From Dehalococcoidia bacterium (GTDB taxonomy: Bacteria; Chloroflexota; Dehalococcoidia; DSTF01; RBG-16-68-14): a stretch of DNA of 64,000 nucleotides. This document shows, one piece after another, positions 1 to 46,994 of this stretch. The position numbers were made by a program, and so were the translations under genes. The stretch is from contig JBBDXS010000019.1 of the NCBI GenBank assembly GCA_040902195.1, positions 213,969 to 277,968 on the forward strand, in the 5' to 3' direction. How positions within the stretch are numbered: position 1 is the first letter of the stretch; every line of letters begins with the position of its first letter. A model generated the notes under the pieces. It worked only from the letters and a program-made list of their open reading frames with translations, made no database searches and was not told the DNA's origin.

Positions 1-365
1 GGCGCGTACGTCCCGTTGTCCCACACGATGACCTGTCCAGCGCCGTAGCGCCCCTTCGGGATCACGCCCTCGAACGAGGCGTAGTCCATCGGGTGGTCCT
101 CGACCATGACGGCGAGATGCTTCTCTTGCGGATCGAGCGAGGGGCCCTTGGGGACAGACCAGGACTTGAGGACGCCATCGACCTCCAGCCGGAAGTCATA
201 GTGCAGGCGCGAGGCGTCGTGCTTCTGGATGACGAACGTCAGCGGCCCCTTGCCGCCGCGCTTCGTCGAGGGAGGCGGCTCAGGCGTCTGCTCGAAGTCG
301 CGCTTCTTGTCGTACTCTTCGAGCGGCTTCTTAGGGGAACGTGGCGATGCGTTGGCGCGGGGCAT
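1..365 (-). CDS. LigD 3'-phosphoesterase (PE) domain protein, N-terminal fragment; gene continues beyond window start
   Basis: Absent from the ORF track because there is no in-window stop. Reverse complement from the ATG at 365 reads [69 protein letters not shown], which contains the [15 protein letters not shown] / VLKSWAVPKGPS signature of LigD phosphoesterase modules. Lies 12 nt downstream of ku. Confidence 0.75.
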
Positions 366-377
366 TGCGCCGCGACG

Positions 378-1229
378 TTATCCCGCGGCGGCCTTGCGGC
401 GGCGCGTCGTGCTCGACTGGCCGTTGCTCGCAGCGCGCCGCGATCGTGTCGGGGCCTTCTGCTGCTTCTTCGCCGTCTCGACGCTCTTTTTGAGCGCCGA
501 CATGAGGTCGACGATTTTGCCGCGCGGCGCCGCCGGCGCTTCGACGATCTCCGCGCCCTGCAGCTTCGCCTCGATGACCTGCATCAGCGCCTCGCGGTAG
601 TCGTCGTGGTACTCCTCCGGCTGGAACTCCTCCAGCATGAGGTCGACCAGCGACGACGCCATGTCTTCTTCCTTGCTGGAGACCTTCACGTCGGGAAGGT
701 CGAGACCTTTCTGGACGCGGATCTCGTCCGGGAAGTAGAGCGTTTCGAGCATGAGCGTGCCATCGTAGGCGCGCAGCGCGCAGAGGCGCTCTTTGTTGCG
801 GATCGCGATCTTGGCTACCGCCGTGAGGCCGCGCTTGGTCAGGACGCGCATCAGCAAGACGAACGGCTTTAACCCCTTCTCGTCCGGCTCTAGGTAGTAG
901 CCCTTTTCGTAGAAGATCGGGTCGATGTCGTCCATCTTCACGAAGCCGGCTAGGTCAATGGTGTGCTTGCTGGGGAGCGGCAGGTTCTCGAAGTCCTCTT
1001 CCGAAAGGACAACGTACTCGTCCTTCGCGTATTCGTAGCCGCGCTGGATATCGTCGTAGGCCACCTCGCGCTCGTGCACGGGGCACCAGCGGAGCTGCTT
1101 GATCCGGCTGCCGCAGTCCTTATGGAGCTGGTTGAACGAGATGTCTTTGCTCTCGGTAGCCGTGTAGAGCTTCACCGGGATGCTCACCATCCCGAAGCTG
1201 ATGACACCGTTCCAGATCGACCTCGGCAT
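378..1229 (-). CDS. ku: Ku DNA end-binding protein (NHEJ)
   Basis: 283 aa. N-terminus MPRSIWNGVISFGMVSIPVKLYTA matches the bacterial Ku core; basic K/R-rich C-terminal tail. Confidence 0.93.
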   Translation of the reverse strand: MPRSIWNGVISFGMVSIPVKLYTATESKDISFNQLHKDCGSRIKQLRWCPVHEREVAYDDIQRGYEYAKDEYVVLSEEDFENLPLPSKHTIDLAGFVKMDDIDPIFYEKGYYLEPDEKGLKPFVLLMRVLTKRGLTAVAKIAIRNKERLCALRAYDGTLMLETLYFPDEIRVQKGLDLPDVKVSSKEEDMASSLVDLMLEEFQPEEYHDDYREALMQVIEAKLQGAEIVEAPAAPRGKIVDLMSALKKSVETAKKQQKAPTRSRRAASNGQSSTTRRRKAAAG

Positions 1230-1382
1230 GCCCTGCCATCCTTTCCGTTCGGGAACCCTTCAGGGACAGCCTTCACTCCGCTTGGAGGCCTGCACCGGCC
1301 CTCCCCAGGCCGCGGGGGTAAGGGAAAGGTTACCGATTATGCGATTACCGGTCAACAGAATGGTCGGCGGTGAGCGCGCCGC

Positions 1383-2459
1383 CTACAGCACAGGCGCAAG
1401 GGGCTCGCGCAAGCACTCCTCCGGCGGTACATCTGGCCTGGGCGCCACGAAGACGGGGAAGCGCAGCACGCCGGCTGGCGTCCACGCGCTGAAACGGACG
1501 TGGCAGGCCAGCTCAGGCTGGCACCAGTAGAAGAAGCGCTGGACTGCGGGCGGCGCGCCAAAGGGCGCGCGCTCGGTATGGAGGGGCGTGAGCATCTCGA
1601 GAAGCTGACGAGCCTCCTTGTCGCTGCAGCCGATACTGACCTCCCCTACGAAGTGAAGCTGGCCTCGATCGTATGCTCCGAGCAGGATCGTCGAGATCAG
1701 GTCCTTCTTGCGGAGCCCGCCTCCGAACGTATAGCCGCCGATCACGAAGTCATCGCTCTGGGCGGCCCGGATTTCCTGCCAGCTAATCGAACGCTCGCCG
1801 GGCAGGTAGTGGCTGTGCTTGTCCTTCGCGACGACGCCCTCAAGGCGATAGCTCGCAGCGGCTTCGAAAAAGGCTATGCCTTCCTCACGCACGAAGTCGG
1901 CTGCCTGAATGTAGCGATTCGGCCCGATCCGCTCGTGGAGCAGGTTGCGCCGCTCGTAGAGCGGACGCTTCAGCAGCCACGAGCGGTCCAGCTCCAGAAG
2001 GTCGAAGACCTGGTAGGTCACGGTCGAGCGCGGCGGCCGGCGGACCGCATCGTTGTCGGGCTGGAGGAGGCGGCCCCGCAGCAGCTCGACGTCCGGTAGC
2101 GCTTCGGCGCCCCACGCGATGATCTCGCCGTCGATGACGGCGTGCTTCGCGGTGACGCAGCGCGCGAGCGACTGCAGCTCGGGATAGTGAGCCGTAAGAT
2201 CGCGCAGGTTGCGTCCGTGCAGGCGCACGTCGTCGCCGTCGATGACGGCGATCGCGCGCACACCGCCCCACTTCACTTCGTAGATGTGGTCGGGCGAGTC
2301 GAACGGCTCATCGATGACGACGGGGAGCATCGGACGCAGCTCGTGGGGAGCAGGCTTCGCCTGCGTGGGCGGACGGTTGCTGCGTGCGGGCGACCTTCTG
2401 GTCATAACGCGTCCATGCGAGGACACGTAGAGCGTATGTCCGTCTGGTGCTGGCGTCAA
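1383..2459 (-). CDS. ATP-dependent DNA ligase (LigD/LigC-like ligase domain, stand-alone)
   Basis: 358 aa. Motif I region YEVKWGGVRA, motif III YQVFDLLELD, motif IV LEGVVAKD, C-terminal OB/motif VI VLRFPVFVAPRPD. The TTG at 2459 overlaps the DUF72 stop (TTGA); alternative ATG starts lie at 2405 and 2330. Confidence 0.82.
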   Translation of the reverse strand: MTPAPDGHTLYVSSHGRVMTRRSPARSNRPPTQAKPAPHELRPMLPVVIDEPFDSPDHIYEVKWGGVRAIAVIDGDDVRLHGRNLRDLTAHYPELQSLARCVTAKHAVIDGEIIAWGAEALPDVELLRGRLLQPDNDAVRRPPRSTVTYQVFDLLELDRSWLLKRPLYERRNLLHERIGPNRYIQAADFVREEGIAFFEAAASYRLEGVVAKDKHSHYLPGERSISWQEIRAAQSDDFVIGGYTFGGGLRKKDLISTILLGAYDRGQLHFVGEVSIGCSDKEARQLLEMLTPLHTERAPFGAPPAVQRFFYWCQPELACHVRFSAWTPAGVLRFPVFVAPRPDVPPEECLREPLAPVL

Positions 2460-3367
2460 GCGCCCTTCACACCGAGCAGCTTCTGCAGCCTCGCCGCGTT
2501 TACCACGCCCTGGTCTTCAAGCTTCGTGTTGAACATAAGAAAGACGTCGTCGGCCTCCGCGGCGAGCTGGCCGATGCGCGGCAGCCACTCCGATAGCTCG
2601 TCGTCCGTGTAGAGCCAGTTCAGCTTTTCTTGGGTCGATGCTGTCTTGTCGTCCCATCGTTCGGCGTTGCGCCCGCGAAAGCGCACCGACGCAACGGGCG
2701 CTGTTACGGCAACGATCGGCGGAAAGCTTGTCTTGAGCTCCTGCGGCTCATCGACGCAGACGAAGCCGCACTTCAACTCGCGCAGGAGATCGAACGTCGA
2801 TGCCGCGCTCTCATCGTCGGAGACCCAGAGAGCGTTCCGGAACTCGACGATGACCGGGTCGTCCGCCAGACGCTCGCGCGCGTGTGCGATGAACTCGCGA
2901 TTCGCCTTCGACGGCACGAACCACGGCGGGAAGTCGAGCAACACCGCGCCCAGCTTGTCCTCGTCGCGGAGCGGCTGCAGCGCGCGGCGGAAGATCTGCC
3001 ACAGCTCCTCGCTGACCTCTGGGGGGATGTCCTTGTAGTAGACGCGCGCCTTCTTTTGGACGTCCGGCGGCAGCGATTCGTGGAAGCTCTTGGGGATGGA
3101 GGAGAAGCGCGTCGGGTGCTGGCTGAACAGCGCGAACACCTTGACGTTGAATCGAAAGCCCTCGGGCACCGCGCTGCCCCAACGCTCCATGTTTTTGTGC
3201 GACGGCATCGCGTAGTACGTGCTGTCGATCTCGGCCGTGCTGTACCGCTCGCCGTAGAAGGCGAGGCGTTCGGGCGTGTCCTTGAGCTCGGGCGGGTAGA
3301 AGCGCCCGCAATTGACGAGCGACTTTTCAGCCCACGATGACGTGCCGATGAAGAAGCGCGCTGCCAT
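2456..3367 (-). CDS. DUF72 (UPF0759) family protein
   Basis: True start is the internal ATG at 3367 (MAARFFIGTSSWAEK...), the typical DUF72 N-terminus. The upstream part of the 439-aa track ORF is non-coding leader. Confidence 0.82.
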   Translation of the reverse strand: MAARFFIGTSSWAEKSLVNCGRFYPPELKDTPERLAFYGERYSTAEIDSTYYAMPSHKNMERWGSAVPEGFRFNVKVFALFSQHPTRFSSIPKSFHESLPPDVQKKARVYYKDIPPEVSEELWQIFRRALQPLRDEDKLGAVLLDFPPWFVPSKANREFIAHARERLADDPVIVEFRNALWVSDDESAASTFDLLRELKCGFVCVDEPQELKTSFPPIVAVTAPVASVRFRGRNAERWDDKTASTQEKLNWLYTDDELSEWLPRIGQLAAEADDVFLMFNTKLEDQGVVNAARLQKLLGVKGA

Positions 3368-3579: not shown

Positions 3580-3594
3580 TATAGCAAGAAATCG

Positions 3595-3730
3595 AATATG
3601 GCCGAGTCCCGAAAGGGAACGGGGGAACCACCCGAATTTGGGGTGCATCCTTCCGGAGCGGAAGGAAGGGCAGTTCTTTCAGCCCTAACCCGACAGCTAA
3701 CCCCGTAGGCCACTGGAAGAAGAGGTGATC
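3595..3730 (+). ncRNA. ydaO/kimA-class (c-di-AMP) riboswitch-like 5' leader
   Basis: Contains GAACGGGGGAACC ... GGGGUGCAUCC ... ACCCGACAGCUAACCCCGUAGGC. These closely resemble the conserved ydaO elements (CGGGGGA-CC, GGGGUGAAUCC, CCCGACAGCUAACCUCGUAAGC, recalled from B. subtilis ydaO). A 5' UCCCGAAAGGGA hairpin is also present. The leader sits in a 558-nt intergenic region about 195 nt upstream of the GT20 start. Confidence 0.5.
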
Positions 3731-3924
3731 GTGAGCACCATCGGGTCGGCGTAGCCGCGTCGGCCCCTTTGTCATCTTGCAGATGACGTTCCGCGGCTGT
3801 TCGCTGGCGAAGGCGGCAGTTCGCTCAACAATCGAAATCTAAACGACTAATGCGGTTCCCGGCCGGGAGGCAGCTTCGAGTCTGTATGGCAGCGCTTTGG
3901 GCTCATGAGAACCAGGAGGCTTAG

Positions 3925-5478
3925 GTGTCAGGACGAACGAACGACCGCGCTTCCGAGAACGCTTCCGCGAATCAGAAGCTGAGCGGCCCGCAATCCAGCC
4001 GCAGGCTGATCTTGGTCAGCAACCGCGGCCCTGTCGAGCATCGCACGAACGAGCGCGGCGACATAGAGCAAGTCTGTGCCAGCGGCGGCGTTGCGGCTGC
4101 GCTTAGCGCGCTCGCCCCGGGCCGGCCGATCACGTGGATAGCCGCCGCCACAGGCGCGCTCGATCGCGTGCTGGCGACGCAAGGGGAGCTACTTCCTCTC
4201 GATGACGGAAAGTACGTTCGCCTGATCGCTCCGCCGCGGGAGGTCTACGATCTCTTCTACGGCACATTCAGCAATCCGGTCCTCTGGTTTGTCCAACACG
4301 CGATGTACGATCGTTTGGAGATGGACGACGTTGATGCCGTCGCTGTCGACGCGTGGCAGCGCGGTTATTTGCCGGTGAACCAGATCTTCGCTGAGACCGT
4401 GATCGATGAGCTGGAGCGAAGCGGAAGCCGCGGGCGCGTCATGTTGCACGATTATCACCTGTACGCCGCGCCGCTCTTCATCCGGAACCGCCGGCCCGAC
4501 GCTGTGCTCCAGCACTTCGTGCACATTCCCTGGCCCCAGCCCGACGCATGGCGCGTCCTACGAACGCCCATCGTCCAGTCCATTTGCGAAGGCCTCCTCG
4601 CAAACGACAGCGTGGCGTTCCAGACACAAGCCTTCGCGCGCAATTTCATCGATACGTGCCGCGCGTACCTCACGGATTGTGAGGCGACGGCGGATCGGAT
4701 CACGCACGCCGGCCGCTCGACGCGCGTCTGGGCGAATCCTGTGTCCGTTGACATCTGGGACCTGCGCCGTCAGCTCGCGTTGCCTGAGGCAGAAGCATAT
4801 CGCTCCAAGCTCGCCGCACCGCCGGAGATGCGCACGATCGTCCGCGTCGACCGGCTCGATCCGAGCAAGAACGTAGCGACAGGCTTCCGTGCCTTCGGCC
4901 GGCTGCTCGAATCGCACCCGGAGTGGGTGGGCAAGGTGCGCTTCCTGTCGTTCCTCGTGCCGTCGCGCACCGGCGTCGCGGAGTATCGCCGGTACAAGGA
5001 CGAAGTCTTCGCCGCTGCCGGGGAAGTAAACGCACGTTTTGCCACGCCGGATTGGCAGCCGGTCGCCATCTATTACGAACACAACCGCCTCCAAGCGCTC
5101 GTCGCCATGAGTCTCTACGACGTGCTGCTTGTCAATCCTCTCATCGATGGCATGAATCTGGTCTCCAAGGAAGGCCCGGCCGTGAACGCCAGGAACGGCG
5201 CCCTCGTGCTGTCCGAGACAACCGGTGCGTTCGAGGAGCTGCGTGCGGGAGCGATCCCGGTGCTGCCGCACGATATCGCCGGCACCGCCGCCGCGCTCGA
5301 TCGCGCACTCAGGCTTCCGGCGGAGGAGCGGCGCGAGTGCACGCGACTGCTGCGTGAGGCTATCGTGCGCCACGATCTGCGTCGCTGGTTCCGTCTGCTG
5401 CTCGAGGACCTCGACGCCATGTCGGAAGATGAGCCGCAAGCGAGCGGCCCCGCTCGCGAGGCGCTGCGCACGGGCTAG
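3925..5478 (+). CDS. otsA: GT20 family alpha,alpha-trehalose-phosphate synthase (OtsA-like; glucosylglycerol-phosphate synthase not excluded)
   Basis: 517 aa. LILVSNRGP, MLHDYHLY and a C-terminal UDP-binding region typical of GT20. GTG start preceded by AGGAGG with a 6-nt spacer. Confidence 0.85.
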   Translation: MSGRTNDRASENASANQKLSGPQSSRRLILVSNRGPVEHRTNERGDIEQVCASGGVAAALSALAPGRPITWIAAATGALDRVLATQGELLPLDDGKYVRLIAPPREVYDLFYGTFSNPVLWFVQHAMYDRLEMDDVDAVAVDAWQRGYLPVNQIFAETVIDELERSGSRGRVMLHDYHLYAAPLFIRNRRPDAVLQHFVHIPWPQPDAWRVLRTPIVQSICEGLLANDSVAFQTQAFARNFIDTCRAYLTDCEATADRITHAGRSTRVWANPVSVDIWDLRRQLALPEAEAYRSKLAAPPEMRTIVRVDRLDPSKNVATGFRAFGRLLESHPEWVGKVRFLSFLVPSRTGVAEYRRYKDEVFAAAGEVNARFATPDWQPVAIYYEHNRLQALVAMSLYDVLLVNPLIDGMNLVSKEGPAVNARNGALVLSETTGAFEELRAGAIPVLPHDIAGTAAALDRALRLPAEERRECTRLLREAIVRHDLRRWFRLLLEDLDAMSEDEPQASGPAREALRTG

Positions 5479-32270: not shown

Positions 32271-32347
32271 TGGTCGGGGCGACTGGACTCGAACCAGCGA
32301 CCTCCTGACCCCCAGTCAGGTGCCCTACCAAGCTGGGCCACGCCCCG
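32271..32347 (-). tRNA. tRNA-Pro(GGG): tRNA-Pro (anticodon GGG), CCA encoded
   Basis: Reverse complement folds as CGGGGCG/CGCCCCG acceptor, GCCC/GGGC D-stem, CCUGA/UCAGG anticodon stem with loop CUGGGGG (U33, G37), GCUGG-UUCGAGU-CCAGU T-arm, discriminator A, CCA. Confidence 0.88.

Positions 32348-46919: not shown

Positions 46920-46994
<75 letters not shown>

Follow-up and report, generated by a model that had tools for sequence, protein, structure and literature searches.

The left end of the analysed window, a stretch of 64,000 nucleotides from a Dehalococcoidia bacterium (contig JBBDXS010000019.1, assembly GCA_040902195.1, positions 213,969 to 277,968 of the forward strand), carries on its minus strand the genes for DUF72, LigX, Ku and LigD in this order, LigX being the name used here for a stand-alone protein that resembles the DNA ligases of non-homologous end joining (NHEJ). 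LigX is naturally altered at both the motif I aspartate and the motif V lysine positions, and the reading that we favour, with a probability of roughly 60%, is that it is a pseudoenzyme of ligase descent, or at most a ligase with severely impaired activity, acting as an accessory partner of Ku in bacterial NHEJ. To judge from the sequence, the protein of the window would have lost its adenylyltransferase activity and might serve as a scaffold or adaptor. The loss of catalytic residues, along with the presence of a normal LigD in the same operon, makes LigX probably a non-catalytic end-joining helper and not the sealing enzyme.

The motifs of LigX (Table 1) were placed by phmmer against the PDB sequences and by a profile of 29 homologues, aligned to the ligase domain of Mycobacterium tuberculosis (Mtu) LigD in the structures 1vs0 and 6nhz, the latter being the K481M form of this domain. 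In both the phmmer and the profile alignments EVKWGGVR of LigX pairs with EGKWDGYR of Mtu LigD. The nucleophile lysine of a competent ligase is present (K45), and Gly47 occupies the site of Mtu D483, where a competent ligase has the motif I aspartate. A preliminary description of this DNA had reported the same KWGGVR, and the codons it had read (AAG TGG GGC GGT GTG CGC) agree with the minus strand. Motif III (DGE), the aromatic residue of motif IIIa, which stacks on adenine (PMC6698739), and motif IV (EGxxxK) are all present, as in a competent ligase. Motif IV had been correctly recognized as EGVVAK in that description; FDLL, which it took for motif III, is indeed kept but is motif IIIa, and the true motif III, DGEII, is intact as well.

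In motif V the S-W-Q-E-I-R of LigX lies opposite the S-W-V-K-D-K of Mtu LigD, with Glu in place of K635 and Arg in place of K637, and hence neither of the two lysines of a competent ligase is left. The preliminary description had rightly seen that both were replaced, but its "Q and R" was off by one, as the Gln is the variable position after the Trp. The end of the OB domain, LRFPVFVAPRPDV, which it had regarded as kept, is the segment of motif VI (RxDK) without its Lys, Val standing in its place. This last loss is weak evidence because the Lys is variable even among canonical LigDs, being present in just 56% of the other canonical LigD-type domains. Moreover, H465 of the Mtu enzyme is Val in LigX. 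The other Mtu contacts to ATP (R486, R501, E530, E613, K618 and R629) are all conserved.

Experimental work on other ligases bears directly on the altered positions. In Mtu LigD, K635 and K637 together with the catalytic Mg stabilise the transition state of adenylylation, and nick sealing is abolished in the K637A and E613A mutants (PMC8656161). The equivalent lysines of the Chlorella virus ligase, K186 and K188, are essential for both adenylylation and sealing, and in motif VI an Arg and a Lys keep the pyrophosphate leaving group in the right orientation (PMC4609770). One of the water molecules that coordinate the catalytic metal is held in place by the motif I Asp, and the motif V Lys is active also in steps 2-3 (PMC6698739). 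Auto-adenylation of Dnl4, the NHEJ ligase of yeast, is severely impaired by either of the changes D284A (motif I) and K466A (motif V) (PMC3694833).

The gene lies within a maximal open reading frame (ORF) of 358 codons, 1383..2459 on the minus strand, which begins with TTG. The start of translation is probably the ATG at 2405, giving a protein of 340 aa, because homologues of 333-340 aa start at the residue equivalent to Met19. With the TTG start the frame would begin only one base from the stop codon of DUF72, the next gene upstream, and the Met of "PML" at residue 44 is internal and conserved among ligases. LigX scored 103 bits with the nucleotidyltransferase (NTase, adenylation) domain PF01068 (gathering cutoff 26.2) and 74.7 bits with the C-terminal OB domain PF04679 (cutoff 27.5). 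These are its only domains, with no fusion to phosphoesterase (PE) or primase-polymerase (POL) modules of the LigD type, and this two-domain frame with ku 153 nt downstream bears out the earlier designation of a stand-alone ligase beside ku. With the NCBIfam equivalog domain TIGR02779 (NHEJ_ligase_lig) the score was 219.2 bits, under the curated cutoff of 227.75. An AlphaFold2 model built on a 29-sequence alignment gave a mean pLDDT (per-residue confidence) of 91.5 and a pTM (predicted template modelling score) of 0.88, and the best Foldseek matches of this model were the Mtu LigD ligase domain structures 6nhx, 6nhz and 1vs0 (E 1e-27 to 1e-29), along with closed archaeal ligases. The two-domain ligase fold is intact in the model.

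When the 120 best database homologues, nearly all from Chloroflexota/Dehalococcoidia metagenomes, were scored for motif I, KWGG was found in 68, MWGG in 19, LWGG in four, KWAG or RWAG in three, and QWGG and LWDG in one each; two were fragments without motif I, and 23 had the canonical K-x-D-G. The more distant relatives obtained in an exhaustive search of 1.84 billion representatives overwhelmingly had KxDGxR and WxKxK. Neighbour joining of 353 ligase domains placed the degenerate proteins together, nested among canonical stand-alone ligases, in a single clade of 155 sequences that includes no canonical one, and widening it to 163 sequences takes in two canonical ones. The sister group consists of 23 stand-alone Dehalococcoidia ligases, also encoded beside ku, all but one of which carry KWDGxR, WxKxK and RxDK, the exception being L040 with KWEG. 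The basal members of the degenerate clade have KLDG, WQTVK and RPDV.

Within the clade there is a gradient from these basal members to two subclades. In subclade A, which has 72 sequences and includes LigX of the window, Lys is found at the nucleophile site in 97%, and Gly, Glu and Arg at the three altered sites in 87%, 98% and 100%, respectively. The 56 sequences of its sister, subclade B, have Met at the nucleophile site in 53%, Leu in 14% (67% together) and Lys in 30%. Among the independent homologues of these two subclades Gly occupies the D483 site in 87-98%, Glu the K635 site in 73-98% and Arg the K637 site in 92-100%, so that the unusual residues, for which the preliminary description had proposed a check in close homologues, are common to them. 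Canonical relatives have Asp, Lys and Lys at these positions in 89-100% (Asp in 95-98%). No clade-specific conserved Lys that could replace the nucleophile was found; the only conserved ones were K194 and K196 of motif IV, both of which also occur in the canonical sisters.

The motif IV Glu is missing from 9-32% of the degenerate groups. By contrast, every degenerate subclade retains, at 73-100%, the residues of the adenosine pocket (Mtu E479, R486, D528/E530, the motif IIIa Phe and K618). In addition, the clade has invariants of its own, namely R110 (Gln in canonical ligases), D170-F171, F227/G229, R290, R304, F316, P324 and a C-terminal Cys, and a 7-residue insertion after motif III, absent from Mtu LigD, is particular to it. 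The closest genome-derived relative of LigX, with 66% identity, belongs to the metagenome-assembled genome of an uncultured Dehalococcoidia (locus L007).

The ratio of non-synonymous to synonymous substitution rates (dN/dS) was 0.16 between LigX of the window and its closest homologue (89% identity). For locus L007 against L009 it was 0.15 for LigX, 0.10 for Ku and 0.14 for LigD, and for L011 against L004 it was 0.11, 0.085 and 0.081, respectively. Overall, LigX had values of 0.11-0.22, compared with Ku values of 0.085-0.10 and LigD values of 0.08-0.14 from the same loci. Purifying selection therefore preserves LigX, only slightly less strongly than the genes next to it.

LigX is adjacent to ku and in the same orientation, and this adjacency was found in 51 of 57 degenerate loci of subclades A and B. 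Four syntenic loci (L004, L007, L009 and L011) have the gene order of the window, and their last gene encodes a full PE-LIG-POL LigD of 928-940 aa with the canonical motifs KLDGxR, WLKIK and REDK/RDDK. LigX is thus not the sole ligase of the NHEJ module. In the window, ligD begins 12 nt past the ku stop and is cut by the window edge, and no further ligase, POL or Ku gene was found elsewhere in the 64 kb.

Counts of gene context were made over all fetched loci, including a few near-duplicate contigs, with flanks of up to 10 kb. Where the degenerate protein retains the motif I Lys, Ku was encoded within 400 nt in 13/14 loci, and parts of LigD were present in 7/8 of the loci that have 5 kb or more of sequence to either side. 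For the Lys-less proteins the corresponding figures were 38/43 and 0/16, and four of the five Lys-less loci without a nearby Ku are truncated contigs. These counts indicate that the constant partner of LigX is Ku and not LigD. In the Lys-less loci ku lies immediately upstream of ligX, often overlapping it. Such tight two-gene units were seen in L001 (9159..11029, with a 4-nt overlap), L091, L092, L094, L097, L100, L109, L111 and L115. Two degenerate proteins, L010 (9088..10098) and L028 (10001..11053), are exceptions to the linkage, having no ku in the 5-10 kb of sequence available to their left and right.

The preliminary description had left open whether the protein is a divergent active ligase or an inactivated paralog, and it had not noticed the LigD downstream. 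The evidence favours the second option because the changes are fixed throughout the clade, the nucleophile is lost in the sister subclade, purifying selection acts on the gene and a canonical LigD stands two genes downstream in the syntenic loci. LigX probably originated from a canonical stand-alone ligase of the LigC/LigD type encoded beside ku in Dehalococcoidia. This ku-linked paralog would have become redundant with LigD for catalysis and would have lost, step by step, the residues for the metal, for the phosphates and finally the nucleophile; in LigX the losses presumed to concern the metal and the ATP phosphates are those of the motif I Asp (to Gly), the motif V Lys-x-Lys (to Glu-x-Arg) and the motif VI Lys (to Val). 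The paralog would have been retained because some function depends on its ligase fold, its adenosine pocket and its closeness to Ku. LigX might then attach to DNA ends or nicks that carry Ku, perhaps also to an adenine nucleotide, but would not itself be adenylylated, and it might stabilise or organise the end-joining complex or hand the ends to a sealing ligase, with sealing carried out by the canonical LigD two genes downstream. Such an accessory role would have a parallel in Dnl4, whose catalytically dead forms are still brought to breaks and support joining by another ligase (PMC3694833).

Several points weigh against this proposal. The motif I Lys is kept in subclade A and the Glu of motifs III and IV and the Lys of motif IV are largely intact, so that residual or altered catalysis is possible in LigX of the window. 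The replacements are specific, conserved and non-random, and could mean a rewired site rather than a dead one. Moreover, an interaction with Ku is suggested by gene adjacency alone, and the tree that delimits the clade is a simple distance tree. Finally, no LigD, PE or POL gene was found within 10 kb of Lys-less LigX in any of the 16 long-flank loci, and the picture of a helper of LigD is therefore not simply transferable to the whole family.

The strongest alternative, which we consider unlikely, is that LigX is an active ligase with a rewired site serving as a second, specialised end-joining ligase alongside LigD. The Lys-to-Glu change of motif V would provide the metal-binding carboxylate that motif I lost with its Asp-to-Gly change, and Arg213 and the clade-specific Gln-to-Arg change at residue 110 would contribute positive charge. 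The near invariance of Lys45 and of the three replacements in subclade A, the occurrence of R110 in 100% of the 128-sequence KWGG/MWGG clade, the retained adenosine pocket, motif III Glu and motif IV Glu and Lys, and the strong purifying selection all speak for such an enzyme. However, the same Gly/Glu/Arg set is found in the sister subclade in which Met or Leu replaces the nucleophile and no other Lys takes its place, and therefore these residues are not conserved for the sake of lysine adenylylation. In addition, the motif IV Glu is gone in about 15% of subclade A itself, a single Ala at the equivalent Asp or Lys cripples adenylylation or sealing in Dnl4, Mtu LigD and the Chlorella virus ligase, and canonical relatives keep K/D/K in at least 98%.

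Retention of the adenosine pocket together with loss of the residues of step 1 is also compatible with a role on 5'-adenylylated ends (AppDNA), which LigX would bind through this pocket, either completing step 3 or shielding or handing over the intermediates of an inefficient LigD. Lys-to-Ala mutants of the Chlorella virus ligase and of LigIV can indeed still seal pre-adenylylated nicks, but Chlorella virus D29A is reported to be nearly inactive on the adenylylated substrate (PMC6035275) and LigX lacks precisely that Asp; as the motif V Lys acts in steps 2-3 too (PMC6698739), we regard this role as improbable. That the unusual residues, which are all that speaks for an artefact, should reflect a sequencing error at GGC, a mis-registered motif (the first two of which had been named in the preliminary description as grounds for doubt) or a decaying pseudogene can be dismissed, given that Pfam, phmmer and the 1vs0/6nhz profile alignments concur on the register, that over 100 independent assemblies have the same Gly, Glu and Arg, with Gly in 87-98% of independent homologues, and that ORFs are intact in more than 150 sequences with the low dN/dS given above, including that of 0.16 against the closest homologue.

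With the pseudoenzyme reading in mind, LigX can be set beside known systems. The Mtu LigD ligase domain (1VS0, 6NHZ, 6NHX), likewise composed of NTase and OB domains, is its best match in sequence (about 30% identity) and in fold, and the Lys, Gly and Arg of motif I, motifs III, IIIa and IV and R501/R629 are aligned and kept; LigX differs in being a separate polypeptide without PE or POL domains. The engineered K481M protein (6NHZ), which was used to trap ATP, mimics the natural Met of subclade B. Canonical LigC-like stand-alone ligases beside ku (L027, L029, L033, L037 and L079) share with LigX their size and position on the ku side, often with DUF72 and LigD nearby, but the canonical Dehalococcoidia stand-alone ligases keep KWDGxR, WxKxK and RxDK, which the LigX clade lacks. 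Mycobacterial LigC, a stand-alone ATP-dependent ligase that acts with PrimC in base excision repair, is a back-up or auxiliary ligase in organisms that have LigD as well (PMC8068969). Like LigX it lacks accessory domains and is a bare ligase core, and the comparison of LigX with the LigC family is here one of architecture; LigC has canonical motifs and is catalytically active, whereas LigX is degenerate and ku-linked. Overall LigX appears to be a pseudoenzyme offshoot of the LigC/LigD ligase family.

A functional analogy is offered by dead mutants of ligase IV/Dnl4 (K282R, D284A and K466A), NHEJ ligases that are hit, like LigX, in the Asp of motif I and the Lys of motif V, and that still assemble with Ku at breaks and promote joining by another ligase (PMC3694833). 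These mutants are laboratory-made, eukaryotic, have BRCT domains and an XRCC4/Lif1 partner, whereas LigX is a naturally fixed and separately encoded bacterial paralog. In eukaryotic NHEJ the non-enzymatic factors XRCC4, XLF and PAXX stabilise the complex of Ku, ligase and DNA end. They resemble LigX in its proposed role only, with no kinship in sequence or fold, as LigX has a ligase fold. Full-text literature searches for a described inactive or ligase-like paralog in bacterial NHEJ, or for NHEJ in Chloroflexi/Dehalococcoidia, gave reviews and surveys without such proteins.

NHEJ in bacteria is commonly presented as the work of two proteins, Ku and LigD. If our reading is correct, a widespread and selected ligase-derived protein without ligase chemistry would add a structural component to it and would be a natural counterpart of the non-catalytic role of ligase IV/Dnl4 in eukaryotes. 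More tentatively, and with somewhat less than even confidence, it can be proposed that the Chloroflexota have a third dedicated NHEJ component, a Ku-paired ligase-fold pseudoenzyme with an adenine-nucleotide pocket that would act as an end or nick sensor, a clamp or a synapsis factor and would not do the sealing. The overlapping ku-ligX pairs of Lys-less type would then be a self-contained module, independent of an adjacent LigD, which would hand ends to another ligase or cap and protect them. Proteins of the LigX type are labelled "non-homologous end-joining DNA ligase" or "LigD" in the source annotations, and counts of ligase domains in genome surveys would therefore over-call the catalytic NHEJ capacity of Chloroflexota. 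Moreover, the graded natural series from KxDG through KWGG to M/LWGG offers material for studying the change from enzyme to pseudoenzyme.

Table 1. Positions of the LigX gene, its motifs and other features of the window, with the basis of each assignment.
Feature	Position	Strand	Basis or state
LigX, stand-alone ligase-like gene, NTase + OB domains	1383..2405	minus	Pfam PF01068 + PF04679; probable start from homologue N-termini
Motif I KWGGVR (canonical KxDGxR)	2256..2273	minus	alignments and codons; Lys kept, Asp to Gly
Motif III DGEII	2118..2132	minus	alignment; intact
Motif IIIa FDLL	1995..2006	minus	alignment; intact
Motif IV EGVVAK	1824..1841	minus	alignment; intact
Motif V WQEIR (canonical WxKxK)	1767..1781	minus	alignments; first Lys to Glu, second Lys to Arg
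Motif VI RPDV (canonical RxDK)	1428..1439	minus	alignment; Lys to Val
DUF72 gene, immediately upstream of LigX	2456..3367	minus	PF01904, 177 bits
LigX-ku spacer	1230..1382	minus
ku, after a 153-nt gap	378..1229	minus	PF02735, 174.8 bits; TIGR02772, 306 bits (cutoff 150)
ligD, 5' part, phosphoesterase N-terminus (121 residues), cut by left window edge	1..365	minus	PF13298, 125.8 bits
c-di-AMP riboswitch	3590..3726	plus	RF00379, 103.5 bits
Terminator-like hairpin	3743..3766	plus
Glycosyltransferase family 20 gene	3925..5478	plus
tRNA-Pro(GGG)	32271..32347	minus
tRNA-Gly(GCC)	46920..46994	plus

The spacer between LigX and ku contains a promoter-like pair seen by eye (TTGACC, 17 nt, TAACCT), a GC-rich hairpin (ggcctggggagggccggtgcaggcc) and a Shine-Dalgarno sequence (GGAAAGGA) ahead of ku, and comparable gaps of 100-290 nt occur in L004, L007 and L009. 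A consensus scan called no sigma-70 promoter in this gap. The genes ku and ligD may have a promoter of their own.

DUF72 is syntenic with LigX, Ku and LigD in the Dehalococcoidia loci L004 (8988..9893), L007, L009, L011, L012 and L088. The DUF72 protein Tm1631 has been computationally predicted to be an endonuclease-IV-like DNA repair enzyme (PMC3828134, PMC4939058), and by analogy with this prediction DUF72 could be an end-cleaning component of the NHEJ operon. A longer DUF72 ORF reaching to 3775 was rejected as spurious.

A reciprocal pattern in motif VI was seen in a small sample (4 vs 6 loci). Where the stand-alone ligase is degenerate and of subclade A (L004, L007, L009 and L011) the LigD has a full motif VI (REDK/RDDK), and where the stand-alone ligase has the motif V lysines and usually the motif VI Lys (L029, L033, L037, L038, L040 and L079) the motif VI of LigD is without Lys, in the variants RSDL, RTDL, RSDV, HPEI and RGDQ.

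On the opposite strand, inside the spurious 5' extension of DUF72, there is a strong cyclic di-AMP (c-di-AMP) riboswitch and, after it, a terminator-like hairpin. The gene downstream of them encodes a family 20 glycosyltransferase resembling trehalose-6-phosphate synthase, an arrangement that suggests c-di-AMP control of compatible-solute synthesis. The window, with a G+C content of 66%, also contains one tRNA gene for proline and one for glycine.

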